A DNA stretch of 64,000 nt from positions 28,396,001 to 28,460,000 of the forward strand of contig OZ004612.1 of assembly GCA_963924565.1 (NCBI GenBank). Direction: 5' to 3'. Source of the stretch: Ascidiella aspersa. Taxonomy: Eukaryota. Shown here one piece after another: positions 5,094 through 28,900 of this stretch. The notes under the pieces were generated by a model. That model searched no databases and was not told the DNA's origin. It was given only the letters and a program-made list of their open reading frames with translations. Both the position numbers and the translations under genes were made by a program. Positions within the stretch are counted from its first letter, which is position 1, and every line of letters starts with the position of its first letter.

Positions 5094-8000
5094 TCAGTAG
5101 TTACTCCACTGGTCTCCGTCTTCATTGTGCGCCAACTTGCTTTGATAAAGCGAATTCCGCACCATTCCGTAATGACTGGGTGGATCGGGGTCCGCGTAAA
5201 TGTGCGATCCACCTTCTTCCGCATTCTGTTCCGCGATTCCGCCGCATTCCATGTATACGCCATCGCCATATTCGGTGTCCAAGTAGACCTGTTGGGTCGA
5301 TTGGTCAAAGGTAACTCTTCCAGTCGCCGAGTTTTCGTGCATTTTTTCGTTCCTTGTTAAGCGATTTCTGCAGCATTCGCAGTCCTTGAATCTGTCGAAG
5401 CGAACCTCGATGCCTGGTACACATTCCACTCTTCTGGGATATAATTACTTAAAGTAACATTTCGAGCATAATGGCTGGAGGCTGTAGCTAGACGTAGAAC
5501 GAATACCAAACCCATATTAAGGCAGTTACGATATTTTTGAACGTTTTGTTTATTCCAAAATGTAAGACGTTGCAAATGATTAAATAATTATTCAAAACGT
5601 TCAAAATATGCCACTTACTTCTGTATGGGCGTTGATATTTATGCTAGGTTTAACGCAACATGTTTTAACCTTTCAAACAACGATTAAAGCAACCTCTATA
5701 TTTTTATTTTTGATTTCTATATTTAAGTATATATATTTTCCTTGGTATACGTCATACAGCTGTAGGGAAGCTACAAAAATGATTCATTTGCTGTAAGCAA
5801 CTATAAGTCATACAACACAACCATCAATTTGAAATATAGTTTTTGGAAACTTTTCAAAAATAGTGCAAAGTTTTAAAACTATGAAAAGTAGGTATTAATT
5901 TAAGGCCATTGTTTATTAAAGTCTTTACTTTCGTTATTTTTACATAAGTTTAACGTTAGGTCATATTGCCACTTAGTAAATAACGTCCACCTCTCATCCA
6001 CCCATCGGCCGAACTTTTTTAAATGTTTTGAAGCTTGTTATACGCTATTTGCTGGTCCTCTTACCTACATACAATGATAACAACAAGTAGCACGAGAACA
6101 GTCACCGCAACCGCTGCAATTACTCCTGTGTGTGACGCGCCTGGCCTCCTGCCTATTTTAAAACATAAATGTTGGTGTTGACCTTGTGTAGTTTTACTGT
6201 AAGCTTTGAGAAATGCTCTAATAATAGGTTTCGCCAGGACTACGCTTGAATTGTTTTGTCCGTTATAAGTGCTTATTTTAAACACTTTTATTTTTTAAGG
6301 TGTATAACAAATGTAACTAAGGTATTTTAAGTCTATACCTGGTATAAACATCTACTACACTTTATCAGTTTCTGGGCGTTTTGTTCTAAACTATTTTATC
6401 CCACAGGTTAAGTTTCTACGAATTGATATTGGCGTTACAGTTTAATAAAATACCTGACACGATAAACCCCTTATATTTAGGTTACACTGGTTTCAAAACC
6501 AGAACTGACGAACCACTTTTTATCCATATGATAAGTGTATTGAGGCACAAAATTTATCAGCAAAAACACATGTTAAAAAAAACACTTTTACCTTTGTGCC
6601 AAGTAAACGGGAACTTTCCGCGTTGCGGCGTCCACGTTGTTACGTTTTCGTGATAATCGTGATCTGTAAAGAAAATATAGTTTATATTTGAGCGGAGAAG
6701 TAAAGAAAAGACATGCTACCAGTCATACTCAAAGAAACACAATCGCTTACCGCTGGGTATTCCTGACCTTTTGACCCCTGCGTAACAAACAGGGTTAAAT
6801 ATCGTATTCGACAAACAAATAGGGATGTCCGATAATATTGGATCGAGGCCGATAACCGATACCAATTTGTAATGTAAGCAATCGTCCGATACTAAGGTGA
6901 TATCGGTTCCAAATCGGACGAAAAACATAAGTTTTAGTCATGGTTTGCATATCTTTGCAGCGATTTTAGTCTTGAAGTGGATTTAAAAGACGATACTTTG
7001 CATTATTTTGTTGTTGACAGGACAGAAATACCGTCGTGTATAAACAATGTACCGAGGAAACAATTAGCATAGAGCGCCTTTACTAATTGCAACACACGTG
7101 ATATACAGGAAGTGACTAACACTGTATCATAATAACGGGACGGTCCATGCGCCATGGCTGTCTGCCACTTAACCTAGACAAGGTGCCACGCACGTCCAAG
7201 GAATTTATCTATATCACTCTTCGTGCCATTGACGCAACTTTAGCGGAAATTGTGAACGATAAGGTCTATACTTAAAGGCACGAACTAGTTGACGAATTTA
7301 GATTAACTAAATAAGTCCAATAACCAATTTGTTTTCGATGGAATCCGCTCCCACACCAAATGACGTCATTACTATACACAAACAAGCAAAATAGATGAAA
7401 CTTAAACGTCATGACGTAATTGGCCTCAGAGGTAACAAGTTTACAACTTGTTATTAACCTGCTTTTGTTCATAAATTTAGCTTTTAAATAAAATTCGCTG
7501 CGTTTCATAGCAAATGCCTAAAATTCCTTTTTAATTTACCGAGCCGATACCGTCCTCATATCGAGCGGGTACCGATAAAACCTCATGGCATCGGGTTTCG
7601 GCTCCGATTCCACATTTTTAGACATTCTTAGTTAAAAGGTCACAAAAGATACTATTTTGCAATTGATTTCATTTTTTCTACCGCTTTTAATGCAAGTTAA
7701 ATGCAACGCCTTTTTGTAACTGATTTAATTATTGTTACAGCGTTCAATGCAAATAGATCCGTGGTTCAATGCAACCTTATTGCACTTTTGTAAAATAAAC
7801 GTACTGAAATTGAATATACAACTATAACGCACCACCAGATCCGAAAGCCCTGTATTTGAGTGTAAATCCTTCGCCTGTGTCCCATCCCACTAAATGTATT
7901 CGAGGCCATGTTAGGGATTTGTAGACCGAACAAACGTGTGTGCGATGTGACCAAGTTACTTTTGCCCCTGTAAGGACAATACAGCTTCCCTTACTGAACT

Positions 8001-8805
8001 CTGTATCTTGAAGCCCTGAAAAGGATAATTTCGTTAATTGTGCTTTTGTTTTTTCAATGATTTTAAAATAGACTGGCTATACCGAAATTATAACCAACAT
8101 TTAAAATTACAGTTCAATTTTCTTAAAAATAGTGCATACTTTTATAGCTATCTGTTAAAATAAACCTTAATATTAATTATTTCGGATATTTTACATGGAT
8201 AACCTTAAGGGTAGAGATAAGTAAATAACTTGAAGAAATAAGAGTCTGCTACAATCGTGTTTACCAAACCTTTGAAGAAATTAAATTGGTTGCCCCGCCT
8301 TATTCTTACCGTGAAAATCGGCTCGTTTCAAAGTCAAGTCTCCCTGAAGAACCGAGAGCTTTACGTGTGTGAATTGGCTGGCGACTTGTTCGCTAATCTT
8401 AAAGTATTTGCATCGGCTCTTGACGGAGAAGTCGTGCACGTGTTCGTGGGCGTCTATCTTCAGGATGTGGTTCGATGCGCACGAATTGCCCGGTTTGCTA
8501 GTTAATGGCACAAAATTCCCACCTGTACGAATATCAACAGTGAATTAGAACCCAGTTTCGAAATATAGCATAGTACTATAGCTAATAGTTTTGTTTTCGC
8601 CTCACTTAAATGCAAAAAACAACAGTACAAAAGTTTTTTAGTACCATATAGATTTGCTGTTAACATTTGGGTCGTATGTAGTCTTACACTATCAAATTCC
8701 AGTTTGCTTGTTTGCTACAAAATTGTTAAGTTAAGGATTAATTTACAAACCTGCATATTCCACGAATCCAATTATAATATTGACAACTGTTAATAATATC
8801 CACAT
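5094..8805 (-). CDS. Receptor gene B: divergent CUB-like domain, short non-mucin linker, TM, Tyr-rich tail
   Basis: Exons 8751-8805 (signal MWILLTVVNIIIGFVEYA), 8310-8522, 7833-8015 (ends GEGFTLKYRAF, like the last CUB strand), 6751-6777, 6592-6663, 6065-6152 (TM GVIAAVAVTVLVLLVVIIVC), 5094-5367 (IYADPDPPSHYGMVRNSLY). Confidence 0.85.
6820..7630. mobile_element. Degenerate non-autonomous DNA transposon (hAT-like) in a gene B intron
   Basis: Ends tagggatgtccgata... and ...gacattctta form an imperfect TIR, with subterminal ccgata/tatcgg repeats at both ends. Related fragments occur near 26883 and 59337. No clear TSD. Confidence 0.5.
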
Positions 8806-9478
8806 ACTTTTAATCGATTTTACTTATAAATTGAAATAAAATGTATGACCATAGGAAGTTAGCTAAATAAAAATTATTTTTTTGATTAACTTTGGGTTTC
8901 TTGTTCTGTGCGGACAATACATTTGCTTCCGTCTTTTTATTTCCTTATAACTAGCCTTTCTTTTGGTTTCTATACAACAGGCGGCAAAGCTTGAGTTTTA
9001 CAACTTTGCAATCCTTTTATTGTTAGATGGTAACTTGCGAACCATATTCCTGAAACCATATCCTCTCTGAGGTCTTGCCAGCCAACATTTGAGCTGCTTT
9101 TTTCATAGTTCGTACGTATTAGAGTTTCTTAACGTAAGCTACAACACGTGTATCCTGTATGTCTGGAATTTTGTCTGAAATGACTAAAATTTGTTTTACA
9201 AATCTGTCCTGTTTTCGAGATTTAAGCTAGCAGACTTAACGATCTAAGTTTACGCTTTATTGACTGAAATCCACAACGACTAATAAACACCAATATAAAG
9301 CTATTAAAAAAAATAACACCGATATATACATCACAAAAAATACCAATGTACAGCTATTATGCTTAACGCCAAAATTGAAACAGACAATTATTTTTTAGGA
9401 CTGTTTATTCCAGAAACTCATTTTTTTCCTTTTAATTAAAAGCATAGCAAAAGTATTTTGTTTCATAGACTGTTTTTG

Positions 9479-11723
9479 TCATACATTCTTCTCGGTATTA
9501 TTCTCATGCGAATAGGATTGGTATAACGAGTTGTGTACCAATCCATAGTTATGGTCCGTTCCGTTTTCTTGATATTGAACATAGGTTTTATCACCAGCGT
9601 TTGCATGTGTAAGGTCAACTTTTGCATTGGTGTTGTAAATTGAATTTTCAACCATGCCGTAGTTGCTTTCGGCTGGGTTCGTTTGGCCTTGTGCCGAAAT
9701 TACATCATTTTTATCCGCTGGTGGAGACGATGTTTGATGATATATGGAATTATCCACCATTCCGTAGTGTGATTCCGCATTGTTGCTCCGTTGAATAGAG
9801 TTTTCCGCATATGTGTAATCCGTATTTTGGTTGCCGGCGTATGAGTCCAGGTTTTTGCTTTTCTTTGACGTTTTGTCATCGTGGCCTTTCCTTATGCATC
9901 TGGAATACGAATAAATTTAAATATTTTTTTTTATTTGGCTGTATTTGTGTTTAATAGAGACATTGGTTAAGGACATCTTACAGTTGGACTAAAATTAATT
10001 CATAATTCACGTGTTACTTTTTAGCTACCGCTTGAAACTCCAACTTTAAGCTAAGATTTTTAGACTGTTACCAAGAACAGATAATAATATATTTTCTTAA
10101 TATTGTCTCTAAGGAGTGTATTATATGCCTATTAAAGCAAGTTTTTTATTGTGTGAGCTTTGTTAAATTTGATAAATCAACTGGTTAGCAACATCACGTT
10201 TTACCTGAGGTATATAACAACAGCTATGGCGATGGCAAGTAACGGCAATGTTACACCGACAACAATTGCGGTGGTTGAATTGTTAGCATCTGGAATAAAA
10301 TAATATACTTGTAATTTGATTTATTTTTGTATACACGCCAATTTGACCAATCGCTTACCTTTAGGTGTTTGTGTAGTAGAAACAAAAAAGGGAGCTACAG
10401 TTGTAGTCGTTGTAACTGAAATTCAAAGTACAACTAATTAGGCGACTATTGTTATGGGTTTATAATAAATACCGGTCATACATAGGAAAATAGTCATTAT
10501 ACACGTAATACACACAATAATGTGTGATCCCATGTTTTTTCCACAAAGTTTTTTTTATCTTGCTACAACCCTAAACCATAATAACGTCCATTATAGTCAA
10601 CCTAGCAAAAACGTTTGGTAAACGCTTTAAGAACTTATATAGTTATAGTTTGCCTTTATATGCATAAAACTACAGTAGCCATTAAATTCGCAGTCCAACT
10701 TACCACCGAGAAATGCCATGTAAGTCAACTTTAATCCTTTTCTGGTTGTAATCGGAGCCACAAAAATGATTTTATCCCAAGACACCGGGGTGAGATTAGT
10801 ACAACCAACCCCACTGTTAACACCTTGTGAATTCCTTGCAATTAAAATGCAATCACCAGCAGAAAACTTCCTTCCTCCCTCTACAAACAAATATTGGATG
10901 ATATTTTTTCTGCTTTGCAGCTAAAAATACAGCACACAAGTCTATTTTACCTTGAAATGCGTTTACTGGCGCACTAATTCGTCCTTCCAGAACTAGCAGC
11001 TGTACCGCATCAAATCGCAACGATATGTTCATTCTAACTGGAATAATTTCAATTTTGTTCGAAGGAACGATTGTAAATGTTCCGTTGAAATCAGTGATCG
11101 AAAGCCATCTGGTTGAATTTCTTAAGGCCATAGTTAAACCTGAATTAAAATTACCTTTTTTGATTTAATCTTGCTGTAGTCAACATATATAGTCCGATCT
11201 TTAAAAAAACAATTGTAGAACATGAAATGAAAATTCTTATGACTTTTCTTTGAACATTAGGATCTTACAATCAACGGTTAAATCGGGGGATACGCTTATT
11301 AGTGTATAACGATGTTTTTGCAAATTTTAGCTATGATATAATTTTATTTATAATTCTGTCGTTTTATCCCTGTGGAATATGGTACAAAGAAACAATAACA
11401 CCTTTTAATTGCTATAAAGCATTGCTTCTCTAAAATATAATAAAATAGCAACCAATATGCCTTTGGCTCTACGCCTAATAAATACTAGTAAAATCCAGGA
11501 TATTCTTATTGATGTACAACGTTTTAAGTATATATAAAATATATTTTTCATATGTTTTCATTAATATATTGTTGGTTTTCTCTGTGGCATGGGGTATAAC
11601 GAAACGATAACACTTTTTAATTGCTGTAAGTACTACGGCATTAAATAATTTTAAACGAAACAACTTACCGCAAAAGCAAGTTAGCAGCATCAACGCATAA
11701 ACACAGTTGCAGTGCTCTGCCAT
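9479..11723 (-). CDS. Receptor gene C: divergent CUB-like domain, short stalk, TM, tail with three YG(M/L)VxNS(I/L)Y repeats
   Basis: Exons 11669-11723 (signal), 10951-11139, 10704-10880 (KGLKLTY), 10359-10415 (stalk), 10205-10289 (TM AIVVGVTLPLLAIAIAVVIYL), 9479-9899. Confidence 0.87.
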
Positions 11724-12446
11724 CAGCAGTATCCTCTCAATTACTGCTTAATAACTCCTATACTTCGCAATAGAAATAAGCTTAATGTTTTCCGATTAAC
11801 TTGAAAAGCTCTCCTCGGTTAAGCTATAAGTTATGTGTTGTTTGACGCGCAACTGAAACCGTGCCAAGGTTTAACAAATTACTTCTTCCGCTGACGTAGG
11901 TTACCCGTATACCGTATCTACAAGTGGCTTATATTATTCAGTAAGTTAAACGAGTAATTTCACGACCGCGTATACACTCATCACAGGCTTTCTAAATTTT
12001 GGCGAATTCTCAGAAAGCTATATTTTTCTTGGGCTACATGTAGATTGTGTGGTATACAGATATAGACAGCGACATGTTTGCATTAAAACACAAAAATTTT
12101 GCATATTAGATTGTTTCTTGTTTTAAATTGTTAGGAGGTTCTAAAACCTTGTTAGGCTAAGTTAAAACTAAAGCATTATCACTACCACCAAACTTGCTAT
12201 ACGACCATTTTCCAAATCAGTATAGCTATAGAAGATTAATATTTCGAAATCTAATAGAGATTTGGCGTGTTTACTAATCTTTCTAAGTCATAATGGTATA
12301 AATTTAAAACATTGACGTTGCCTAACATTATTGATTAGATATTTCTTCTGAAAAGTCGAGAGGAGTAAACCACATAAAAAGAAAAAGAAAAAATGCGATA
12401 AAAGTTTTAAAAAAAGGACGATATTTTGCACGAAGATACCTAAAAC

Positions 12447-12714
12447 ATTGGTTTATATTTATATAAACTGTTGCTACCAGGCATGGTAATATAAATCAAA
12501 AACAGATCCTCTGGTAATTGTAATTGTTAACCAACGTTTCGGCAACCTATACGAGCATTGCTCGCGTTATTTCTGGTTTTTTTTGCTTTTCATTTATTGT
12601 ACGAGCGTTCAGTGCCATTCACCCTGACGAAGGCGGCTTGTATTGGTTGCCGAAACGTTGGTTAACAATTACAATTACCAGAGGATCTGTTTTTGATTTA
12701 TATTGGTTTATATT
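12447..12714. mobile_element. Penelope-like retroelement remnant: ~70-bp inverted repeat with a hammerhead-ribozyme-like core
   Basis: Arms 12488-12557 and 12636-12704 are near-perfect reverse complements. ctgacga-a-ggcggc/gttgcc-gaaac lies at 12624-12656. The flanking 13-bp direct repeat attggtttatatt is at 12447-12459 and 12702-12714. Confidence 0.6.
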
Positions 12715-12859
12715 ATTTTATTGTACGTATTGCAACAAAATATACAACAAAAAAGTTGTTTAATTAATCTTCTTTGTCACATACGAAAATACAATAAATG
12801 CACGCGGGTTGTAATCGATTTATTTGTACTGTCTTGGATGTGGTTTTAACTTTTTGCCG

Positions 12860-15569
12860 CTAGCTCCGTTCAATGCTGCTTTGATACAAGCTGTTTGCAA
12901 CCATTCCGTAATGGCTCCCTCCTTCTATTTGCCCGTCTTGGTCACCACTCGCTTTTCTAGTTGTTTGGTTGCTGGCGCTGTCGTATATTACGTTGCTGGT
13001 CATCCCGTAGTGAGACGGCGGGCCACATTCGGCATACTGCTGGTTATTTCCCTGCGTTGTAGCAGCTCCCACAACTTCGTAAGTAGCTTGTTGCTGTGGT
13101 GAATTGGGTGCTGGTCGACTGTGGAACCTGCTCTCGGCGTTTGTGCTAGCCTTAGGTTTACGAGATGAATTTTTGTGAACACGCTTCCTAAAGAAATACA
13201 AACATGCAGTTATGGTTGCTGCTAAAACATATACCTGGTTGCTTGACTTATGTTGTGCCGTAATAGTATATATCCAAAGCCATATTTTTGCATTCGTTAT
13301 ATCATAGAAGACCCAAATGTTGATTGTTAAACTAAAAATAATCTTGGTTTTATATTTAATTTATGAACATTTCAGTGGTAATCTTTTTTTGGCAGCTTAG
13401 AAGAAATCAATGTAGACTGCTTTCTTACTTGAGAACTGTTGCCAGAATTAGAAGCATAATTCCAAGAAAAACTCCCACAATAATTCCAGCCATAACGTCG
13501 CTGCCAAGGCCACCTATATAGAAAGAATATTAACATAAAATATTAAAATAAACGACATCCCAATTACCAATACTAAAATACTGAAAAAAATATGAAGTCA
13601 AAAAAATCCAAAACTGAAAATTAGAAAAACAATCTTTCGTTTAATTAAAGTTGTATGATACGTACAAATTTCAATACCTGAGTTGCCTAAAGGTTTTGCG
13701 GTGGTTAAACGATCGCTGTCTACACCGGTTACTGCATAAGTTGTTGCAGACCCCACCATTGCATCTGTAGTCAGTGGTTTTCTGGGTGATTTTGTTCGCA
13801 CTATGTTTGTCGTTGTTTCAAGAGGTTCGGCTGGTCTTGTTGCCAATGTCAGTATTGTCTTCGTTTCTTAAAACACATGTTATTTTGGAATAGAATAGCT
13901 GGACCAAAGCTCATACTGGTTTATTTAGCTTTTTTTGAACGTTTCGAATAAATCTTAGTTACACGAAAGAGGGAATACAAAAAGTTCAGAAAAAGTTTTA
14001 AAAATTTAAAAGATATATTGAAAATGAATAAAGACTTTCTAAAAGCTTTTACCAAATGCAACGTAAACTTCTCTATGAGATTTGGTATTTCTTTCAATGT
14101 AATTTTATTTGTGGTACTGATTGATGTGTTAAGTTTGTTAGCTGAAACGTACCTCTTGGCCCAAAGCTTGACCTTATTCTTGATGATAACGTAGAAATCG
14201 TTCCAGGAATGCTTTGTTTTGCTAAAACATAACAGAAAATAACAAAGTAGATGGAATCAGTATATTATTTGAAAATATGCTTTCTTTTAGGTTTAATAAA
14301 CTATGCAAAAATACGTTATAGAATAAGTTTTAGTAAACAATACTGTATTACCGACATGTTAAGGGAATAGATAGAGTGACATTTTTACATCATGTACAAT
14401 AACGTTCTATAATTTTAACCCAAATTTTAACTAATTTTGCCTTAATATTTTACCGCTTAACGTTATTGTGAATGTTTCTCCTGGGTTCGACGCAAATGCG
14501 ATAAGTCGCATATCTCTCCAATTCTTGGCCGTCACAACTTTACACAAGCCGTTGTTTTCCTGTGTTTTTTCTGAATACCTCAAAATTCGTACTGTTTCTT
14601 GTTCCCCTTTCGTTTCACATGTTGCTGAAACAATGCATCTATTTTATCGATTGTTTTTAGTTGTGTTTGTCTTTATCAACAGGATAATTGAACACTGTAT
14701 AAAAAGGCTTGTTTGGTAACCGTATTTGTCTTTACAAAAAACTGAACACTAGTTCACAAATTGTATTTTCGTAAAAAGGCTTAAACGTGATACAACAAGC
14801 ATAACTTTGAAGCACACTCAAGTTGGTTGATGACTCAAATGATATACCATTGGCCGCGTATTCCTACGTGAGTGACTCGAATCTCACCAAAGTGCTTTGC
14901 TAGCACTATATTGAACGTTTGTTGTTCTTTTTCTTTTTTCTTTCAGTTAACCAGCATATTTGCTTCAGAGTCAGACCTCATTTATTTATTTAACGACTTT
15001 GGCGTGGTTTATCTACTTATTTAAGATGTTGCTTGTATTACTGTATAGTCCTTCTTATAATCAAAGTGCAGTTTACATATTCTCCACAAAATATCCCGGC
15101 CAACTTTTTTTTTATATCACCAAAGATCCAACTTTATACTTACTATCAAACGAGGTTATGTTCAGAAATATCGCGCTTGAGTTTTCCAAATGCAAGTCGA
15201 TTTGGTCATTTTCTCCCCCATCTATTGTTAACAAGCATAATCCTTCTTCTGGCGTTGTATTAAACCTTTGGTTGACCGCTGACTGTTCCACCTTGAGCGT
15301 GTTTTTGCATGGGGCAGACAACATAATTTATAGTTTCTACCTAATTCGATAAACCAACAAACTGATGGAAAGATTGCTAGGTACGTTACATTACCAGCCA
15401 ATTATGTGACTAATCTGGATATTCTGTCTCATTATTGTCTAGCAGGTCTGTAATATACGCGGTGCTCTTTGTTTTTCCAAACGTTTTAAACCTACTAACC
15501 TGAGCATGAAAGCTCATTTAGTTGTACAGCTGGTATTGTCTGACTTTTTTTAATTAACGCGATATACAT
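12860..15569 (-). CDS. Receptor gene D (5' end apparently defective; possible pseudogene): divergent CUB-like domain, stalk, TM, Tyr tail
   Basis: Exons 15144-15314 (expected acceptor reads TG, not AG), 14454-14624, 14153-14221, 13678-13866 (stalk), 13429-13513 (TM VMAGIIVGVFLGIMLLILATVL), 12860-13187 (YAECGPPSHYGMTSNVIY...SHYGMVANSLY). Candidate first exon 15500-15569 is not hydrophobic. Confidence 0.7.
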
Positions 15570-16736
15570 TTTCAATTTTATGAAGTCGCGATATCAGAAC
15601 ATCTTGTTTAAAGCTCCCAATACTCTAATTCTTACTGTATAAATAAATGCGATGCTACCACATGTAACAACCTTAATATAGCGCAAATTAAATCCCATAA
15701 TACATTACATTAATCAAGTCTCACAGGCTTTATCTGTCTTCAAAATTCAGCCTATATAGTCTGAATTGCAAGGCTTAGATGAATGCATACTGTAGAAGAA
15801 TACCCCTGGTTGTCACGATCTGCCAATAGTGCAATGCAAATATTCGGACAGCGCTAGCTAAGACAGTCTGACTCGTCTCATGTTTGCCGGATGTTCTTAC
15901 GTGAAAATCTTAAATTTAACCTAGCAATGGCCTGAAGGTCCCTTCAGTTTACTGAAATGAGCCCCGCCGTTGAAAAAGACCGAGGTAGAAATAAAAACAC
16001 AAAAATGTGATTGTACACAAGACAATGACATGCAACTTTTAAGGTATGTTAATCTACGTATACCTGACTCTTTTAGGTCTTACCCAGTGCTAGAACTGTA
16101 CGGTAAAATATTTTGACCCATGTTGCACAGACCATGTAATTAGTCAAGTACAAAATATGACAAAAACTTTTGAGGACATATTTGATTGGTTTGCGCAGAA
16201 TTTTACATAACGCTCTCTATAATATATGGTTTAACAATTGCGAATGACTCACAAAAATGACCAAGAGTCCGCTTAGCTATTTTTACTTTTTCAAATTGTG
16301 TTAATTTTTGAAAAAAACTTTTTTGCTTTCTGTTATCTCCTTATTAAAACAAATACTGAACTCGGACTAAAAATATATCAATAATAGAACAAATCAAAGA
16401 TGAATATTTGCGTTTAAGACCTCTCAAAAACGGAATCAAAGTGGCGAACCGTTTTATTAGCATCATGTAGACAACGAGAAAATGTGACTTCATAAGTTAT
16501 CAAATTACCCAATTGAGTAATTTACACAAACTATGAACCACAAAATTAAGCTTTTTAATGCGGCAAAATAAAAAAGCTTGTTATCAAATGGTAAAAATAC
16601 ACCAATTTAAGTAATCAAATTACCTCTTGAATAGCGAACCATAGAAATTAAGCATTTGCGATAGAAAAACGAAAACTTCCGTCTTGGAGCACTATATGTT
16701 TTTTGGCGCGATTTTGTCTTGTCTTTTGTGTAAAAT

Positions 16737-19302
16737 CTAATAAATAGCATTTGATGTCATCCCGTAATGCGACGGAGGTCCACATTCGGCGTACTGGGGT
16801 TCGGCTGGGGACCCAGAAGCTTCGTAAGTAGGGGGTTGTGCGCTTGCACCTTGTGCAGTGTTTTGTCCTGGATGCTTGCTTTTGCTGTTGCGTCTTTTGC
16901 ACCTGATCAGAAATAACAAGTCAAACTCAGTGTGTGGGTAGGTTTGTGTTTTTGTACGTTTTAAAATGTATGTAACATTTTCTACAAGACATAGGACTTT
17001 CGAATACCAAAACTTATGTTTCTTTTATGAAAAAAAGTAATATAGTACTTTAATCGTAATTTTAGCAAACGTTTAGTCTAAAAATAATTAAAAAAATTTT
17101 TGACCTACTTAATGTTTGGCCCAATTTTTACTTCTAATTTCTTTACCTCTTTACATTTTTACCAAAATTATCTCTTTAACTAAAGAATGTATTTTATTAG
17201 TTGCTACACTTTTTATTATTTTGCCAAACGTCTTGTTTCGATGTCATCGGAGGCCCTATACAAAAACATATACAGTTATACACGCACCTTAATAGCAATG
17301 CTGCTGTAATCACGAGGATAAGAATAACGGCGAGCACTATGGCTGCTATTGCACCACCGTTAAGACCGTCTGTAAATTCAAGAATTCTTTATTTGTCAAA
17401 GTTTGCACAACGTGAAGAGAAACGAGTTAGCATTAATTTTAGCCTCTAAGTTTTTTTTTTACTTTTGGCATGGTACCAGAACTTTTACTTTTGATAGAGT
17501 TCGTTAAATAACATGTTGCTGTTCTAATGGCTCGAATTTATAAGTATATATACTTCGTTAAATAGTTTTTAATTTAATTTAATTGTTTTCTGTCCTAAAA
17601 AAAGCAAAATGTGGCAATAGTTAGAACCAATGAACGAAGCACACACGAATGTGTGTTTACAACTGTGATGTGCCCTTCTGAAGCTGGAGGTCGTGAGTTC
17701 GAACCTCACTGCAGGCTTGTTTTTCTAGCCTGCTCAGCTTGCATCCTTGATCGACAGATTTGGTGAGTCTGCGATTGCTTTCGGTGTACTAGTTACAACC
17801 AGAGTTGTTGTTTTAACTGTATGTTGATATATCATTTTAAACTGGTCATATGATCAGAACATACTTTTTGTTGTTGCTGTGCCTGGTTTAGCTTTTGTCG
17901 TTTTAGTTGTCGTCGTTTCCGTCTGTTCGCTTGAACCAGAACCTAAATTCAATAAAGAATGCATCAGTTTCTGCATTAAGAAATTACTACTTTTTTATCC
18001 ACGGCTTAATGCGGATGTTGTTTAAAACTCCGAAATCGAATATAAACTTCATTATTTTAATTTTCTAGCAACCCAGGGGTATGTTAATTACTCTTTCATG
18101 TTTGTTTAAAAAATTTTCACCTTCTTGCACCACTTTAAACTCCCCTCTATTAAATCTCGCTTGTATAGTCATGTTCTTCCAATCTATGGCGTAAATAAGG
18201 AGACAACCGCCAGGATTTTTTCCACCAGAATTCGATCGACGGATCTCGATACAATTATCATTGCTGGTTAAACATCTGGGTTCATCCTTGGGTAGGGCTG
18301 AACATATGTTGATCACGTACAAGCTTACTGTTTTCTTAGACAAAAAACATGTTATAAGTGGTAAAATATTAAGTGTATATGATAAATATAATATTTTCCT
18401 GATTCAAAACAATATACCTTCCTTAAACGACGCTAAGGTAAACATTATAATGACCACAAACACTAACTTTGTGGACACCAGTTTAGTTATAACAAGACGC
18501 TATAAGTTAAAACAGAAAAGAAAACCCATAAATCGTATCAAAATGTAAAATTAGCTAAATAAAACAATTTATATTGGATAAATTTAATTAAACGTTTATT
18601 TTGTGGAGGTGTCGTACCTCCACTATTGAAATAACACAATATTTTTACAGCCAACCTGAAAAATACTTTGGATAAAATTTCAATCTTCCCTTTTCAATGA
18701 TCAGTTTTACTTTTGTAAACTTTCCGCCGTTTATCTGAAGCGAGCATCGCCCCGTCAGAGAGTTGATTTTGAAAGGTCGCTCTTTTGACGTTACTTTAAG
18801 AACCGGCTTATTGCATTGCTTTAAGTTGTCTGTCATACATATATTTGCCTGTCATACTTATATTTTTCATAAAAAAATTATATATATATTTATAAACCTG
18901 TGTAATCCGTGTCATTAATTACTTTATGAAGCTGTGTAAAATCAGCAGTAAAGGTTTTGTAACTTTTTTTTAAATGCTGGAAAAAAGTGAGACCCATGTT
19001 TTATCAAAAATTGGCTGAGTTATATTAATATTGTTTAAGTTTCAAAAGTTTGTTGTTAAATATGTTATTTGTTAAAAATGCCACATATTTACTTAGCCTC
19101 AAGAAATGCCCAGTTGCAATAGAGGCCTCTTGTTCAGCAAGTAGTTTGTACAACAACCAGTCGTGCGAACTGTCATACTTGTTTTGTTCACATAAGTACA
19201 GTACTGGTTGCTATTTAATAATATTATACTCATACCTTGTAAAGCCGCGATGCTGATCAGTGCAAAACTGAACAACACCTGGAACGTGGTTCTTGTCGTC
19301 AT
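16737..19302 (-). CDS. Receptor gene E: divergent CUB-like domain, stalk (second stalk exon SINE-disrupted), TM, short tail
   Basis: Exons 19236-19302 (signal MTTRTTFQVLFSFALISIAALQ), 18656-18829, 18121-18297, 17865-17942, [disrupted exon from 17816], 17288-17369 (TM GAIAAIVLAVILILVITAALLL), 16737-16902 (YAECGPPSHYGMTSNAIY-stop). Confidence 0.8.
17663..17742 (+). mobile_element. tRNA-derived SINE fragment
   Basis: B-box region gaggtcgtgagttcgaacctc is identical to the copy near 49748; the 3' part tagcctg...cttgc is shared with the copy at 33565-33648. Confidence 0.65.
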
Positions 19303-20026
19303 TTTGTTCAATAATTTTACAAAGTCTAATTACCAAAGAATACAAGTTACACAATACCAGTATAACTAACGATTCGCATTACACATGTAGGCAATTTACC
19401 TTGTTAACTCTTCCACTGCGATAATCTATTTCTGTAGTAGAAAATAAATCAATAACTTTTAAGCGCATGCTTTGTTGAAATTAACTTATCTCAACCCAAA
19501 AGTGTGAATATTCTTTTGTTTGTGTGACGCAATGCATGCTGGAGGAAGCCCATTCTTCCTAGTACAATGACTGGTAATTTGCCATTCTCACTGACCTTAT
19601 ATAAACCGTTACTGATCTATTCTGTCTTTCCAAGAAATTTTAGGTCCCGCATATTGTCACCTAAAACAACCCTGTCCGAATTTACTTTATTCCGATGTAT
19701 TTTTTCTTGAAAATCATTGTTTGCCTTGAACATTGTTTGCCTTGAACGTTATGTAGTTGATTTGACACATATTTACTTGTTTTTACAGCATTTTATTTCC
19801 AGAACGCAGCACGTTTTTTGGGGTAAACGAAACGTAATCAAAGTGCACTTCGTGACAAAAATGTACAACAATGTTCCCAAAAAATCAACCTGAATAATTT
19901 GCGAAAGAAGTAATTCGTAAGTAATAGCACGTTTAAAGAAAATATAAAACCGGCGTAGCGAAATAAATTGCGAATAACATTAATATAAGTACAAATAAAT
20001 AACAGAGTCATGATTAAAATCGCATT

Positions 20027-23000
20027 TCAATAGTAAACGGCATTATTGCCATTCAAGTTTGTCTGATTTCCATCAACGCCTTGATACAGCGAGTTTTCCA
20101 CCATCCCGTAATGCGTTTGCGTCGGGGCGCTTACGCCGTTTGCGTGACTTGCGTAAAGACTGTTCTGCGTCATTCCGTAATGCGAGTCTGCCTTTACGTC
20201 GCCAGCGGTTGCGTAAGCGCCACCGTCAGCCATTGCATAAAGTCCGTTAGCTGGCATTTGGTGCTGGTCGTTTGACTGATAAGCTACGTTCGAGGTTAAG
20301 CCATAATGTGATGAAGGTCCGCATTCAGAGTATTGTGGGTTGATGTGACCTCCTGTACCGGTTGCTAGCTCTTCGTATGTACGCGGTTCGGCGTACACGT
20401 TTTCCATACCAGCATCCGTATTTCCAGCCGGCTTATCGCCCTTGTCCTCTTCTATTTTGTACCTAAAATGAAAAGCAATGTGTTCAAAGTGCTTTGGTTG
20501 AATGTCGTACGAAATACATAAATTGTGTTTTTGGTTTGAAAATTAGATAATTTTTCCCTATTTGTTTTAAAAAGTATTTTAGCAAAAAACATTCAAATGG
20601 TATAACCCACACCTCGTGTGTGACTTTTAGGAAATTAAATCGATTTAAGCCTCTTTTAATTTTAGTATAAAAATAAAAAAAACGCTTTGCCTGTGCCTCT
20701 TTATTATTAAAAGGACAATCAGGCATTGATCATATTACTTCTACAGTATATACAGAAAAATGTATATGGTATAAAAGAAAAAAAGGGCAAATTGTTCTTA
20801 CCTTAGTACCAACGCAACCACCAGTGCAATTAGAAGCAGAATAACGATTACGATAGCTGCTATCACGCCGTCGCTAAGTCCACCTGCAAGAATAGAGTAT
20901 TGACTTGTAACTGATAAACCAGTATAACTACCAATGATTGTGTATACAGTGACCATCTTATTAACCATTTTTGTGTCTTCTGCATTTTTTCAATGCCTGT
21001 GTTCATCAAGAAACCTCGAATAAAGGCACTATCTATCGTGCTTATATTGAAAAAAATACGCGTCAAAATGAAACAAATAGCTGCCTAACAACATATAGCC
21101 ATGATTGCTAGCTACCATATACGCATTCAATCTTTCGCAAATATGTGTAATGTATTTACCCGTGTAAACAAAGGAAAAACTATGGCCTTTCCATTGTTTA
21201 CGCAAGTCTACAGTTAAGACTCTTGGGAATACCAGTATACAACCTTCTCTATAAATACAAGTAATGCACCAGTACGGTGCAAGTTGCGTGACGTAGTTAT
21301 TTACGTTAGTTACTTGCGTCATTTCCTTGTCATGACTTACCAGCGCTTTCAAGGTGCACCGACGTGATGTTGCTGTTTGTTGAATTCGGAAAGGCTGCAG
21401 TTGGGCTTGGTGGGTTACTTTGTCTCTCCCTTGCAAAAGTGGTGGCTTGGCTGTTAGTTAAACTTACTTTTCTGTCGCTTGTTGATGTTTTGGGGCTGAT
21501 CGTGGTCGTCGTTATTGCTGTAGTTGTTGTTGTTGCTGTGAACAGTTTGGACAACATTGTGTAAATCAGCATTTCCCAACTGCTTCCAAACTATGCTTTT
21601 ACTGTTATATTTCAGATTCGTGTTTTGGTTTAAGGTTAACTGATTAACTGGACAAAACACAAACACCAATACCTGTGGTTGTTGTTGTTACTATTGTAGG
21701 TCGGGGTGTCGAAATCATTCCGGAGCCTACAAAAAATAAAAATGTTTGGTTATATTTGGTTTTAGCTATGTTTACTTGCAGATTTCATAGTAACACAAAA
21801 TAGAACAATTCTTAGGAATAAACGGTAATTACCAATTGTGTTTAACGATGTAACAAAACGCCTATAGTGGCGCAAAATCTATTTTTCTTCTCCATTCACA
21901 CATTTTAAACTATATAAGACAAGCTTATTATTGGACAAATAGCGAATTTGCCCCTGTATTGTTCACATAACTTTGGCACACAAAAGTCATGTTTTTGTAT
22001 TATTTAAAAATTATTTTTTGTGCAAAAACGTGATATTTTACTTAGCGTGATCTATATATAATATTTTAGGCGGTGCGTTCTTTAAAATGGCATTACAGAC
22101 ATTTCAGGTCCTGACAATTCTTTATTGTATACTTTTTTTCTCAAATAAATACCTGTATGATCCATTTCGAATTTAGGTCCACTGCTTTTACTCGCTTCAA
22201 CATACATTTTGTTCCAATCTTTAGCAGTAATTTGGAAGCAGTTATTGCCACCATTTGTTGGGGTTCTCGATATCACAACACACTCGCCCTCTATCAACTG
22301 TTGGGTTCGTCCGTTTAAGCCTGTAAGATTGATGAAAAATTTGTTCAATATTGTTAACCGATTGGGAAAATTTCAATGCTTCCATACCTTACCAATATTA
22401 AAACTTTAATCTCTTTTTTTAATCAAAAGCAGCTACTGTGATAATTATCTTTGTATATGGCTGTATTTGTCTAATTCTAAATAGAGGAATCAGATGGTAC
22501 TGTGTAAAGACGAATTCGCCGTTTTTATCGTCTTTTACTCGCGCCTGTGCTTTTACTTTACTTCGTGCATTTCAACTGCTTTCATTTCCACTTTGACCTG
22601 ATGAAGCACGGTTGTGCTAAAGCTTGTCGAGAATCCAATACAATTTGTATTTGTACAGTGCTACCTGATTTCTGTGATGTTCCTTTTCCAACGTTTGTGG
22701 GACCTATTTAACTATTTTGGCACACACTGCACTACGAGCGTTCGACGTCATTCATCCTAAAATGTTGGACAAGAAATATAATTGCCAGAGGAGCTGTTTT
22801 TGATTAATATTATGCCTGGTAGCAACAGTTTATATAATTTCTCTATTGGTAAAAAATACCTTTTATACTGATGTTTAAGAAATGACGGAATATTATTACA
22901 CACAACCATTCACAAATCCTACCTGTAAAATCGTTAGGGCTGAACTTTGTAATACTTTTCCTTTTCGTCATTATGGTCACCGATGTGAAGGAGCCACCGT

Positions 23001-23302
23001 CTATATGCAGCTTACAGGTTCCGATGATAGGATCGATTTTGAACGTTTCTTTCTTTGCTGACACAGTTACCGTCCTTACACACGACTGGCAGTTAGCTGC
23101 ATGAATAGAACAAGTATAAACATCATTGGAGTACATTAAAGTGTTACAAAACGCGTTTTAAACGACTTATGCCATTAATTATTCGGTATTATAACGTAAA
23201 AAAGTTAAATATATTGTAAATTTAAACATAGTTAAATAGCTTACCATACTGAATGATCTGATTCATCCAAAGTAGGACTCCCAATAATTTATAAAATTTC
23301 AT
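20027..23302 (-). CDS. Receptor gene F: divergent CUB-like domain, mucin stalk, TM, long Tyr-rich tail
   Basis: Exons 23245-23302 (signal), 22923-23096, 22153-22320, 21673-21726, 21341-21535, 20802-20883 (TM GVIAAIVIVILLLIALVVALVL), 20027-20462 (SHYGLTSNVAY, SHYGMTQNSLY, THYGMVENSLY). The ectodomain is clearly paralogous to D and E (GxCxLxIxGG; WxxM motifs). Confidence 0.88.
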
Positions 23303-23795
23303 TTTTTAGTTTTTACGATGCAACAGCTTGGTCATAAAGTTCTACACAAATTAGAAATATGTTTTCTGGGCACACAAATAATATTGATTTAGAACAAGTC
23401 GCATTCAAATTTATGCACTTTAGCAAATTAGTGATTTTGTCGTTAATAGCAACTCAAAACAGGCAGAAAGCATTCCATCTATAACCAGACATAGAAACCT
23501 TACCGACTAAAATTATCAACTGACTTCCTGGAAGTGATCTCAATTTGTTTCAGCGATTGCCCAAAAAAATATTTCAACTCAGCAAACCAATATCTCTCCC
23601 AAAAATATCCGATTAAGCCATCGACAATTCGCGCCGCAGCCTAAAGTGCATTAAAAAAAACGCAAAAAAAACAACAAAATTTGCCGCGGCCGAAATATAT
23701 GTCATAACAATGCCCTACGCGATGGACACTTAAACGCCAATCAAACTGACCAAACGACGGAAACGCGAAATATTTATTCCCTGCCGTGGAATAGG

Positions 23796-23894
23796 AATAT
23801 TTGGCGCTTTAATAAATGTAGTAGCTTTACGTGACTTGCCTGCTCTGTAAGTTAAGTCACGTAAACCTCCTACATTTATTGAAGCGCCAATATT
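23796..23894. other. ~100-nt hairpin with ~41-bp near-perfect arms
   Basis: aatatttggcgctttaataaatgtagtagctttacgtgactt pairs with aagtcacgtaaacctcctacatttattgaagcgccaatatt across a 16-nt loop. Confidence 0.75.
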
Positions 23895-25743
23895 TTTAGT
23901 GCTTGACGCCATTCACGTCGGAAGACATTGTGACGCATACTTCTGCACGTCAGGTGGAAGCTAAACCCCCACGAGGTCGCATTAGGGGCATACCCTGACG
24001 TCATCTATGACGTAGTTCTTCTTGGAAAGTCAGTCGCAGTTTGTTCTGGCTCGAGTTTTAATTACATTTTTGGTGATAACCAGTTTGTTAAATACAATGC
24101 TGTATGTAACGCAGTTGCTTTTGTCACGTGCGGTTGTGAATCACTATTACAGTGATTAAAATTAGCTTTCCAATGGTTGAACAATAAACTCATGTACTTC
24201 CGTGGTTAAGGCGTATCTGAATGGTTGCCTTACAACTTATATATCGCAAACCTTTTTATTAGGTGCTCAACTTAAATCAATTTCTACCCTTCATTATCTC
24301 TATTATATTCTGTTTTCCTTGCGAAACAAATTAAATTAATTCTAACAAACTGACCAAGTTCCTTACAAGTTAAAAACAAACGAAAGGTTGTATCGCATTT
24401 TCTTGCAGAATTAAGTACCATTACTTCAAGTTAATCTAAACATACAGTACGTTAAAAAGAATCCTCAAAGCAATTTTTCTGCTTGTTGTGTAATTTTTTA
24501 ATATCTCATCTCTTGCAACAACTGTCACAAGGCTGTAATACCACAATAGATTTAGTTTACATCTAATGTGAATATTTGGACGCTAACCTGAAACATTGCG
24601 ACGTGATGACTCGTTTTTGTGTGGTATATCCTACTTAAAACGGAATACCACTACTTTCGTGCAAATAACCGTAAAATAGTCTACTCATAGGCAGTTCTTC
24701 CTTAAGAGTTATAGTCTTGAAACGTTCGCACTTATTATAAAATATTACATCTATGGCTTATGTGTTTTCCAACATCAATTTTGAGTGTACTAATAATACT
24801 AGTAAAGGCACGACTTAGTGTGATTTGAGGTCCTATACATTTCGTGGGACTTTATCATCATCTTTATACACCTACAGTCTACGTATATGCAAATAACCTC
24901 GCGTCAACTTCCGTTTTTACCTAAAGTTTGAAGTCTACCTAACCAATGCTGATAAACTCGTCTCAACCATAACCTGCATTATTTTTTGGTTTGACACGTT
25001 TCAGCACTTAATGGTTGCACGTCTCTTACAAACAGCATATGTTTAAGTCGTACGCGTTCCTTAAAAGGCAAAATATGTAAATCAGGCGGCACTCTTAACG
25101 ACAAAATGTATTAAATCTTGACAAGCTTTCGCACAACGCTAAACCTGGTGAAAGTGGCAATGATAGAAATGAAAAAACACACGAAGTAGAACACAAGCGC
25201 GAGTAAAAGGCGATCAAAAGAATCAGGACTTAAAAGGCAACAAATCGTCAAAACTCCATGGAAATACCAGGGTCTCGTCTGACGCAACGAACACGCCGGA
25301 TATTTGCTGTTAAACGTTTCAATCAACGGATGGGCTATGCTCGTATGCTGTGTTGTGCTTAATCGCAACATATGGTTTTTCCAAGCGCTAATTTTGTGGT
25401 CTTTGCTGGGTATTTCTGTACAAATATTTCCATGCAACAAACTGGTAAATGTCTCCTGTGTAGTACAATTGTACCAACGTTTAATTTTAATGATGATTGG
25501 TGAATTTCTGTGCTTCCTTTAAATCATTATTTTGTTTTAGTATTTCTAGTAAAAACATTTTATTTTTCCTGTTTATATAGGCCTACATGTGTTTTAGTTA
25601 AACATAGCGACGAAAATAAATGACCTATTATGGATTTCCAAAATATAGTTCATAAACAACTATATGTAATTGCTAAAAGTTACCATTCTTTTATGAAGTT
25701 TTGTAAAATTATAGTAACCAACAATCATGGTCCACTGCTAATT

Positions 25744-25992
25744 ATGGCACACCGCGCATTTCCGGCCTACCGAAAGGAGTAGGATCTTTTAAACTTTTAC
25801 GAGGTTATTGGATCGCGTATTTCGTCACACCATTGGGCATCGGCCTGTAAAGTATGTTGTTTGAAAATTTCTTTAAATTAAATATGACACACCGTGAATT
25901 ATCTTTCTACCGAAAGCAGTAGTATCCCCTAACTATTTTAAGGTTATTGAATCTCGTATTTCATCCCACCATTGGGCATCGGCCTATAAAGT
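25744..25992. repeat. Tandem duplication of the gene G stop-codon region
   Basis: 25744-25853 aligns with 25883-25992; the copy encodes LYRPMPNGVTKYAIQ-stop versus LYRPMPNGGMKYEIQ-stop. Confidence 0.85.
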
Positions 25993-28900
25993 TCGTTGTT
26001 GACGATTTGACGCTCGGTGCTCTTTAGCGCCGTGTCGTGGTACAAGCGGTTGTCCACCATTCCGTAATTCGGCGGCGGTCCGCATTCCGCGTAAGCTTCC
26101 TCTTCTCTGCGTTCCGCAATGTTTCGCCGCTGCCGCATTGCTTCATCGTCCACCACCGAGTATATGTCGTCCCTGTTCATTTCCAAACCGTCTTTGTCCG
26201 TATCCTCCTTGTGCTTTCTTTTTTGTCTGGTATTAAAGTATTTTAAGTGAGCTTTTTAGGGTTGACCTACAATAGCTTACTAGGGGTTTTCAACTTTTAA
26301 TTTCCTAATGGCGCAACAGATTTGTGTGGCATCTGGAGTCATAACCAAAGCCATAAATTTAAGTTTAACTGGCGATAAATAAAACATGATATGCTTGTTC
26401 CAGCATTTGCGTATTTTTTTCGGGCTACACGTAATGGTCTGTGAACTTCTTTATCTAAAATGTGTTAAATATCGTCCGGGTTTAAGCGTTGCGTTAAGAT
26501 TGTAGGCTACGAATCCTACAAATGCTACGCGAATAAAATAAGTTTGGGCATCACTGAGTTAAATACTATTATCATGTGCCACAGAAAGCAATAATAAATC
26601 GGGTTTCCACCCTAGTATATTACAAAAAAATCGCTGTTAAAGTTTTAGAATATCCCGGTTGTTCATATTATCTCACCTTCTCCATAGTAGACACATAACA
26701 GTAATTGCTAGTGCAATAAGAATAACTAGCACAACCACCAGTGCTATGATCAAGTCTGTGTTGTTACTTGTCTGCGGTGGAACTGTCGTTGTTACTGGAG
26801 CTGTTGGAAAAGGGTTTTAACATTTTAGCTTCTAATAATTATACTTAGTCGTTGTACATGTAAAATGTGTTTAATTTCCAAACTGTCCGATAATATTGGT
26901 TCAAAGCTAGACCGAAATTACTTTAACAAAGACATTAGTCCGATCCCAATGAGGAATTAGGTGAAGTAACAGGCTGGTAATTATTTGAAGAAATCCAACG
27001 AGGTATTTTGATCGTTGGAACTTACACAATATTAGTTCTACAATGTTTTTAAATGCCATTTAGTTAAGTTAAAATACCTCGCTTTTACCTGCAGTTGTGG
27101 TTTTCCTTGGTTTGGTTGGCTTCCTTGGTTCAGGAGACAGAAATGTTTTGGAGCTGGTTGGAGGTGGTTTTATGCTGGGTAGTTGTTTAGCGGTTGTCCT
27201 TATTGTTGTGACTGGTTTCGTTGTTGGCTTAGCTTTTTAGTAAAGCATGAATATTAAAAATAGTGGTCGATGAAATGTAAATTTTTAGCGTTATCGTGTA
27301 TTTTGACACAAGTTGTCAGAAAACTACGGTATATACTATACGTTATAAAAAGACCGCTCTTTCTTTACGTACGTTATAAAAAGACCGCTCTTTTCTTTTA
27401 CGTGAAATATATATTGTATCTATTATAGCGAATTCTAAGGTTATTTCAATTGGTTAAATTTTTGATATGAACATACGAAGTTAAAAAGTTTTTTTTAATC
27501 CCACAACCTTTTTAGGACGCTTTGAGCAATATAGATAAAAAACATACGTACGATGATTAATAGTAGTGCTGTTGATAGAGGCTATACCTTATAAACCAGT
27601 TAAACAAAGGTCATCCTATCTTAAAATACCCAATAAAACACACTGCTTACTTGGTTGGCAATTGACAACGTAGTAATCTAGCTCAAATCCTCGGAATTCG
27701 TTCTTTCCATCCGACGCAAAGGTTATGGTTGGATGACTGAGCTGTTGTAGAATGGTGTCGTGAACTGATATAGCATCGCATCTCTGTTGCAAAGGGCTGC
27801 ATATCGGTGTAGAGGTGCCGTGATAGGCGTAACACTGAAAGGGAACCTGTTTGCCGCATACGCGATAACCTGCGCGGAAGAAGCCAATTGCTATGTTAGT
27901 TACTGAGTGGACGCTAACCTTATTTTTATGTTATAAAACGCCTTTACAACAAGTTAGAATATTAGTCTATCAATATTAGACTTGAATCCTACGAGTTAAA
28001 AGCCACTGTTTGATTAACTGAAACCCCAATAAGTTGGAATGTTAGTCTGCCAGTTTTTAAATTAATCCTACAACTTAAGTTAACTATCTGATGAACTGAG
28101 CAATCCATACGACACATTGGTATTTTTGTATTTTTTTAAGTCGACTTTACCCATAATGTTGACCTGATGGAAAGTTCTGTGTTTTGATTTAATCATTAAG
28201 TCGCACTCTACTGCAAAGTAAAATGGTACTTATATAATTTTATGCAGAGTAGAGTTTAATCACTTGTGTCAGACCCTATTAAAATGCTGAAGAACCGACC
28301 ACGAGAAATCCTTTTTTCTGACCTTTTTTGAACATATAGTAATAAATTCCAAGTAATACCTCGGGTATTCAGATTAATCAACGCTAAAATGTCCTCGGAA
28401 CTACTTTCGTTAGGGTTATTAAAAACATTTATAGGTAATTAATAGTACGAATATAAACATATATTATGCCTGTAAAACAACACGGCTTAAAAATACCGAT
28501 GGCGTATAACTCTTTATCTAAAAAAGAGTGTCACTCTGAACAAATTGTATTTAAATGTATTCGGCATCAACAACCTACCGTCTGGCATTTGCAAATAGTC
28601 TTTACAGCTTTCCTCAATGTCCAACTTCCTAAACCTAACCACGAGGCCATGGTGAGGAGGTATGTCGAACCGCCAGACGCAACGCTGGTCCTTCTTGTAT
28701 TTTCCGGGTGGGCTTGGGTAGCTTATTGTGCCACTGCTGTCGGTTATGATTAGGTTCTTTGCGTCGCATTGCATCGTTCGTGCTTTTGGAGGGCCTCGTT
28801 TTGGTGCGTAAGCCGACTTTGCGAAAATCACTGCACAAATAGAGTATTTATTGTGGAGCATAATAATTGAAGTTTGTAGTTAGACGTGGAAAGAATATTA

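Follow-up and report, generated by a model that had tools for sequence, protein, structure and literature searches.

The 64,000-nucleotide stretch of Ascidiella aspersa DNA analysed here (the window; assembly GCA_963924565.1, contig OZ004612.1, positions 28,396,001 to 28,460,000) carries on its minus strand six adjacent genes, B to G, for predicted single-pass receptors whose cytoplasmic tails bear a short motif with two tyrosines eight residues apart (Table 1). For B, C, E, and F, the open GT-AG models are complete, at 247-388 aa, and each consists of a signal peptide, a two-exon domain of roughly 110 aa, a mostly Thr-rich stalk, one transmembrane (TM) helix, and a tail. These models are predictions, because 6% of one RNA run yielded no splice joints, with near-zero depth outside repeats. 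A CUB domain was recognised by Pfam in G, and no CUB match was obtained for the B–F exons scanned. A profile of the B–F domains showed a weak likeness to the CUB domains of paralogs (score 20.2, probability 3%, compared with a maximum of 17.3 in 20 column shuffles), located mainly in the second exon, and the ectodomain of gene B is possibly a derived CUB. Ectodomain identity among B–G was 11-31%.

Eleven copies of a two-tyrosine motif

Six-frame translation of the window revealed 11 copies of YG[ML][VT]xNx[LIVA]Y, which fall between 5145 and 26072 and are all encoded by the minus strand; the longer form [HN]YG[ML][VT]xNx[LIVA]Y likewise returned 11. This count agrees with that of the initial annotation for genes B–G. 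All copies lie in the last exon of their genes, C-terminal to the predicted TM exon (one in B, three in C, two in D, one in E, three in F, and one in G). When the window was simulated 30 times under an order-3 Markov model, no copy appeared. A Glyco_hydro_6 match exceeding the Pfam threshold points to a tunicate, GH6 being a tunicate marker within the animals. Moreover, when the 308.6-Mb genome was scanned with a codon pattern of the [HN]YG[ILM][VTAI]xNxxY type, 11 of the 12 matches were the window copies (the reversed control gave 4), indicating that the composite motif is confined to the B–G cluster. As the copies are paralogous, they do not represent 11 independent origins. The simulations, the genome-wide scan, and the selection counts given below rule out chance or artefact as the source of the motif.

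Residues are numbered back from the last tyrosine of each unit (Tyr0). Tyr-8, Gly-7, Asn-3, and Tyr0 were invariant in all 11 copies, and position -6 was always Met or Leu. Position -5 was Val in seven copies and Thr in four, and position -1 was Leu in six, Ile in four, and Ala in one. Ser or Thr occupied position -10 in 9/11 copies, with Ser in eight, for which TCN as well as AGY codons are used. The consensus proposed in the initial annotation, (S/T)HYGM(V/T)xNx(L/I)Y, was matched letter for letter by seven copies, and its remark that YAECGPP often precedes the motif held in part, the exact form being found before three copies and looser forms before two more. The same annotation assigned THYGMV of gene F to the consensus of the tyrosine-based switch motif of immunoreceptors (ITSM), as distinct from the inhibitory motif (ITIM), and this is correct for unit F3, one copy of the 11.

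Table 1. Predicted genes, tail exons, and motif units of the B–G cluster (window coordinates)
Feature	Position	Strand	Description
Gene B	5094..8805	-	open GT-AG spliced model, 317 aa; signal peptide, two-exon Cys-containing ectodomain, short stalk, TM
Gene B tail exon	5433-5094	-	
Unit B SHYGMVRNSLY	5145..5177	-	loose ITIM
Gene C	9479..11723	-	open GT-AG model, 327 aa, layout as gene B
Gene C tail exon	9899-9479	-	three units with spacings of 35 and 38 aa
Unit C1 SHYGMVDNSIY	9740..9772	-	loose ITIM
Unit C2 SNYGMVENSIY	9635..9667	-	loose ITIM; nearest to the layilin talin site
Unit C3 HNYGLVHNSLY	9521..9553	-	without the ITIM -2 residue
Gene D	12860..15324	-	partial model: ectodomain, Thr-rich stalk, TM; signal exon and 5' end outside the model
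Gene D tail exon	13187-12860	-	
Unit D1 SHYGMTSNVIY	12983..13015	-	Thr variant; YAECGPP precedes
Unit D2 SHYGMVANSLY	12884..12916	-	loose ITIM
Gene E	16737..19302	-	complete model, 247 aa; sole unit is a Thr variant at the protein end
Unit E SHYGMTSNAIY	16740..16772	-	Thr variant; YAECGPP precedes
Gene F	20027..23302	-	complete model, 388 aa
Gene F tail exon	20462-20027	-	three units
Unit F1 SHYGLTSNVAY	20279..20311	-	Thr variant
Unit F2 SHYGMTQNSLY	20153..20185	-	Thr variant
Unit F3 THYGMVENSLY	20084..20116	-	ITSM consensus
Gene G	25944..28830	-	open model without signal exon: Pfam CUB domain (E=2.4e-10), Pro/Thr stalk, TM
Unit G PNYGMVDNRLY	26040..26072	-	without the ITIM -2 residue; PPxY with the preceding Pro; YAECGPP precedes

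The tail of G combines one YG unit with one family-type unit. PPxY sequences resembling WW-domain ligands were seen in two tails: PPNY at 26064-26075, which uses Tyr-8 of unit G, and PPTY in gene E. Among the variants listed, one at 20032 changes the last Tyr of F to His in 5/5 RNA reads. In addition, the interval 7257-9114 shows many differences from public runs across the ectodomain exons and introns of gene B, and very high-copy interspersed repeats occupy intronic and intergenic DNA at about 12.4-12.7, 17.7, and 22.5-22.8 kb.

Selection on the first tyrosine and the family-wide NxxY core

For the Y-G codons, the proportion of synonymous differences (pS) was 0.74 and that of non-synonymous differences (pN) was 0; pN reached 0.61-0.71 at spacer and flanking positions. 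Since Y-G never varies although synonymous sites have reached saturation, selection is acting on the extra tyrosine, and the expectation in the initial annotation that the first tyrosine matters is upheld. The whole S-H-Y-G block is maintained by selection, and it is intact in all four copies with Thr at -5. Neutral carry-over from a recent duplication was ruled out by the saturated synonymous sites together with the low ectodomain identity.

The C-terminal half of the motif is more widespread. The pattern MV[DE]Nx[LIVFM]Y gave 40 matches genome-wide (20 in the control), concentrated in the B–G cluster and in two further clusters of that contig. Outside the window, a second cluster of seven tails, one pair, and single tails elsewhere were found. 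Altogether, 25 tail open reading frames (ORFs), picked by hand and including one ("C2 tail") that may be unrelated, held 44 NxxY units, 11 with YG and 33 without; ectodomains were inspected in the window and in part of the second cluster. The consensus of the 33 non-YG units is E-[RK]-[EQ]-[MTV]-V-[DY]-N-[EV]-L-Y, with Val-5 in 32, Leu-1 in 31, Arg or Lys at -8 in 25, and Tyr-8 in none. The core being family-wide and Tyr-8 absent from all 33 of these units, [HN]-Y-G is a replacement of the usual E-[RK]-[EQ] at -9 to -7 that is confined to B–G. From this comparison, the core, which is of the type bound by phosphotyrosine-binding (PTB) domains, is the shared element of the family and presumably older than Tyr-8.

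Further tyrosines accompany the core. A third tyrosine upstream (YAECG, YEMAG, YAVAG, and YSMAD types) occurs in the tails of B, D, E, F, and G and in non-YG paralogs. It lies at -17 in 6/11 YG units, and some Tyr between -21 and -14 is present in 21/33 non-YG units; the upstream Tyr therefore also seems older than Tyr-8. A second Tyr at -4 was found in 6/33 non-YG units. TVYNELY, in which T-x-Y-x-x-L overlaps NxLY through Tyr-4, ends five units of the second cluster (G000:C6:28.75-28.78 Mb; L086, L087, L088, L091), and MVYNSIY occurs once in the window (36251-36269).

The other groups of the same receptor tails comprise seven genes at G000:C6:28.745-28.79 Mb (L093-L097) and two at 29.785-29.793 Mb (L101-L102). 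CUB-like exons, a Thr stalk, and a TM segment were seen in those genes of the second cluster that were inspected. At 29000-62000 of the window, and at L041, further paralogs have more clearly defined CUB domains that contain an additional Cys-rich insertion; their tails vary, and some are without NxLY. One paralog tail (window 49053-49421) contains IPIYATV, which we take to be similar to EPIYA-type motifs. The sequences DDIYSVV, DDLYAVV, and EDLYAKV (window 25947-26255 and 45102-45419; L109) are similar to motifs that have been described as hemITAM-like and core-2 in Botryllus FcoRs. A long tandem-repeat ORF with several NVLY, 117 kb from the window start (G000:C6:28512773-28514269; L056), was left out of the tail set, and a near copy of the tail end at window 36075-36470 lies on another contig (G000:C8:2755375-2755506; L105).

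The motif as a proposed extended PTB-fold ligand and competing readings

We somewhat favour the reading, drawn from sequence comparison, that the two-tyrosine motif is one extended ligand of a PTB-fold domain (Dok/IRS/FRS2 or talin F3) and not two competing sites. All 11 units carry Asn-3 and Tyr0 in a cytoplasmic tail, with hydrophobic residues at -1 (Leu or Ile in 10/11), at -5/-6, and at -8. Pro-2, which marks the NPxY subclass, is present in no copy; it is described as dispensable for the NxxY class (PMC8007030). The PTB half of the initial annotation is supported, the core being conserved throughout the 44 units and close to known PTB-fold ligands. The consensus for Dok1 is Y/M-x-x-N-x-L-pY, and 5/11 copies fit it exactly. 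According to published accounts, position -8 is a known contact, both in the insulin receptor and in beta3 integrin: W739 of the latter (Y747 minus 8) inserts into a pocket of talin F3 (PMC2720171), the IRS-1 PTB domain depends chiefly on Leu-8 among the flanking residues, and a hydrophobic residue at -5 is important for Shc (PMC3355962; for general PTB background see PMC2150770, PMC3938774, and PMC7550416). CD200R, which recruits no SHP, likewise has a conserved Tyr at -8 ahead of its Dok2-binding NxxY (PMC8007030).

Genes for potential partners were observed in the genome, and binding to their products is what we infer. They comprise an exon for talin F3 (E 1e-24), another that is weakly Dok-like (E 0.004-0.006), and seven IRS-type PTB matches, some of which we label IRS or FRS2 by resemblance. 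The family would consist of lineage-specific single-pass receptors, with a CUB or CUB-like ectodomain and a Thr-rich stalk, that present tandem Phi-V-x-N-x-Phi-Y in the tail. Within the PTB groove, N-x-Phi-Y would make the turn, while the sheet of the domain would gain a strand from residues -6 to -4. Gly-7 may permit a bend of the chain, and Tyr-8 would sit in a distal hydrophobic pocket, where it could alter affinity or partner choice. Any switch would then lie at Tyr0, which might bind talin F3-type domains when unphosphorylated and Dok/IRS/FRS2-type domains when phosphorylated, as in integrin tails, where phosphorylation of the NxxY Tyr is described as swapping talin for Dok1 (PMC12173946).

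Among the closest known systems is the LH2+LH3 repeat of layilin, a protein that binds talin via tandem ESG(F/W)V and N(D/E)IY repeats (PMC2132847) as well as WVENEIY (PMC4003243). Layilin and the present tails both have tandem repeats of a single-pass receptor with the form G-Phi-V-x-N-x-I-Y, talin F3 binding being the function in layilin, and the layilin sequence G-W-V-E-N-E-I-Y equals unit C2 at 6/8 positions, including Gly-7. However, Met or Leu replaces Trp or Phe at -6 here and Tyr replaces Ser at -8, and the layilin ectodomain is a C-type lectin, whereas that of B–G is CUB-like; the likeness carries no claim of homology. The beta-integrin W/NPxY sequence (beta3 739-WDTANNPLY-747) likewise places an aromatic residue eight positions before the Tyr of NxxY (PMC2720171), but the residue is Tyr and not Trp in these tails, which have no Pro-2, carry one to three copies, and belong to non-integrin proteins.

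Several observations weigh against the extended-ligand reading. Layilin fills its pocket with an aromatic at -6, a position held by Met here, so that the comparison mixes two modes of binding. The YG units also stray further than the other units from the PTB consensus of the family (Val-5 in 7/11, Fisher p = 0.010; Leu-1 in 6/11, p = 0.007; descriptive values only, the units being related). Ser/Thr-10, present in 9/11 copies, is beyond the usual PTB footprint and unexplained, and Ser is found there in only 3/33 non-YG units. Furthermore, Tyr-8 is never Phe or Trp in the 11 copies; a purely hydrophobic contact might tolerate such a swap, and a phosphorylation site would not.

This last point bears on a reading that we regard as rather doubtful, in which Tyr-8 is a true phosphorylation site outside the ITIM class that recruits a different SH2 protein or a kinase of the Src family, blocks the PTB partner, or does both, like Tyr682 of APP. 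Tyr-8 is strictly invariant and co-selected with Ser-10 and His/Asn-9, Y-G-x-Phi resembles the substrate preference of Src, and the genome has 45 SH2 matches. In addition, the occurrence of Tyr-4 in 6/33 paralog units suggests that overlapping tyrosines were gained repeatedly, although Tyr-4 is only one base change from the family Asp. Few acidic residues flank Tyr-8, however, and the residue at pY+3 may be either Val or Thr. In APP, whose Y682ENPTY687 likewise holds two tyrosines in a short motif, phosphorylated Tyr682 is reported to create an SH2 docking site and to reduce or abolish the binding of several PTB proteins, so that the first Tyr can switch between SH2 and PTB partners (PMC2723102); the spacing there is five residues instead of eight, and the motif contains YxN and NPxY. 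CD200R is described as an inhibitory receptor with no ITIM and no recruited SHP, in which conserved Y289 lies eight residues before Dok2-binding Y297, and Y289F affects one signalling arm, with only a partial effect (PMC8007030). Its motif, EEDExxPYxxYxxKxNxxY, resembles the present one in that Tyr-8 and one more Tyr upstream of it precede the NxxY, which binds Dok in that non-ITIM receptor, but that upstream Tyr is at -11 rather than at -17 as in 6/11 units here, and the acidic patch, Lys-5, and the Ig ectodomain are found in CD200R only.

The initial annotation had instead proposed that phosphorylated Tyr-8 forms an ITIM or ITSM for SHP or SHIP, mutually exclusive with PTB binding at phosphorylated Tyr0, and that Thr variants serve the PTB partner only. 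This we judge quite unlikely. With the consensus given in PMC8631942 (ITIM, S/I/V/L-x-Y-x-x-I/V/L; ITSM, T-x-Y-x-x-V/I), four of the 11 copies, in three of the six genes, fit a loose ITIM, all through Ser at pY-2, and F3 is the one ITSM. Four of the six genes retain one or more units of ITIM- or ITSM-like form, and the two ITIM-like units of C are 35 aa apart, a plausible distance for tandem SH2 domains. SHYGMV and SNYGMV, assigned to the ITIM consensus in the initial annotation, fit its loose form; the strict form, with I/V/L at pY-2, used for Botryllus FcoRs (PMC12582321), is matched by 0/11 copies. Position pY+1 is Gly in 11/11, whereas a medium non-polar residue is the criterion stated for SHP1 docking, and Gly there was shown to weaken the PD-1 ITIM, apparently the only such case in that study (PMC8631942); VDYGEL of PD-1 indicates that Gly+1 can occur, but the residue invariant here is the weakening one. 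Compared with PD-1 and the FcoRs, the units share the loose consensus in 5/11 and, with PD-1, Gly+1; they differ in having no aliphatic residue at -2, no conserved +3 residue, and a single copy in most tails. The FcoRs themselves are Ig/sushi proteins with Ala at +1 in the ITIMs quoted (PMC12582321).

Also in favour of the ITIM switch are the selection on Ser/Thr-10, a SHP2-like gene in the genome, the use of ITIM receptors by ascidians (PMC12582321), and a possible single origin of the Thr copies. The pattern of conservation, however, does not support it. As the initial annotation pointed out, the Met and Val residues are shared between the two sites, and ITIM +3 is indeed the PTB -5 Val. This Val is presumably older than Tyr-8, and it is kept in 32/33 units without Tyr compared with 7/11 with it (the Fisher value above, from units that are not independent), so the YxxV match is automatic for any Tyr at -8. 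If an ITIM were the reason for keeping Tyr-8, Val should show its strongest constraint in the YG units, and loss of Val should go with decay of Y-G. The data run the other way: Y-G is unrelaxed in the four Thr copies, which keep S-H-Y-G, and gene E has a Thr unit alone. In these four variants the ITIM is broken as the initial annotation stated; its claim that their PTB site is kept intact is uncertain, as -5 is a PTB determinant (PMC3355962). An ITAM (immunoreceptor tyrosine-based activation motif) was ruled out by the Tyr-to-Tyr spacing of 8 and the absence of YxxL/I. Among the 30 of 45 genomic SH2 matches that were translated, no SHIP was identified and no SAP was recognised, which does not imply the absence of SAP. 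Two intronless ORFs (L117 and L122; G000:C1), each with tandem SH2 domains and some 606 aa long, were noted, which we take by resemblance to be Syk-like.

The overlap of YxxPhi with NxxY also admits a compound sorting signal, in which AP-2 mu2 binds the former and a Dab/ARH/Numb-type protein the unphosphorylated latter, like GPLY and NPEY of the insulin receptor. We consider this very improbable. YxxPhi fits 7/11 copies, and GPLY965 and NPEY972 are described as additive in insulin-receptor endocytosis (PMC3355962); however, the four Thr copies are not YxxPhi and still keep S-H-Y-G, and no unit has the FxNPxY form. Finally, it is conceivable but unlikely that the family placed a second Tyr over its PTB site more than once, at -8 in B–G and at -4 in the second cluster, and that the Tyr-8 unit is a two-phosphate switch between an SH2 effector (SHP2 or other) and a Dok/talin-type PTB partner, with Val/Thr variants setting the balance differently among paralogs.

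Relatives and implications for the receptor family

Comparison of the F tail with longer proteins gave no match among 200 candidates, a profile of 13 tails none among 7999 scored, and a profile of the 11 units none at E<=0.001 among 1.84 billion representatives, a 30-position profile having little power. The CUB-exon profile gave 29 matches, to generic multi-CUB or cubilin-like proteins, and the three examined in full were without such a tail. The Atlas returned generic CUB clusters, no match to the C tail exceeded 0.88 there, and the PDB profile search gave a single chance match (E 0.68). In these sequence searches no ortholog of the receptor family was detected, the blanks being weak evidence. 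The full-text literature on overlapping ITIM/NPXY motifs, ascidian ITIM or CUB receptors, and tunicate CUB tails, which excludes supplements and largely leaves subscription papers uncovered, did not describe the motif or the family among the matches listed, and the receptor family of B–G is apparently undescribed. The motif itself belongs to the NxxY class of PTB ligands, and each mechanistic ingredient has precedent.

These findings call for caution in motif annotation, as a Tyr three residues ahead of a PTB -5 Val creates an ITIM match automatically. The 44 natural variants offer a ready panel for the effect of the -8 residue on PTB specificity. In this clustered and fast-diverging family, with about 25 tails found, the ectodomains are barely alignable and the PTB-type tail signal is fixed, a pattern that fits recognition receptors signalling via Dok or talin, as CD200R and layilin do, and not via ITIM or ITAM.

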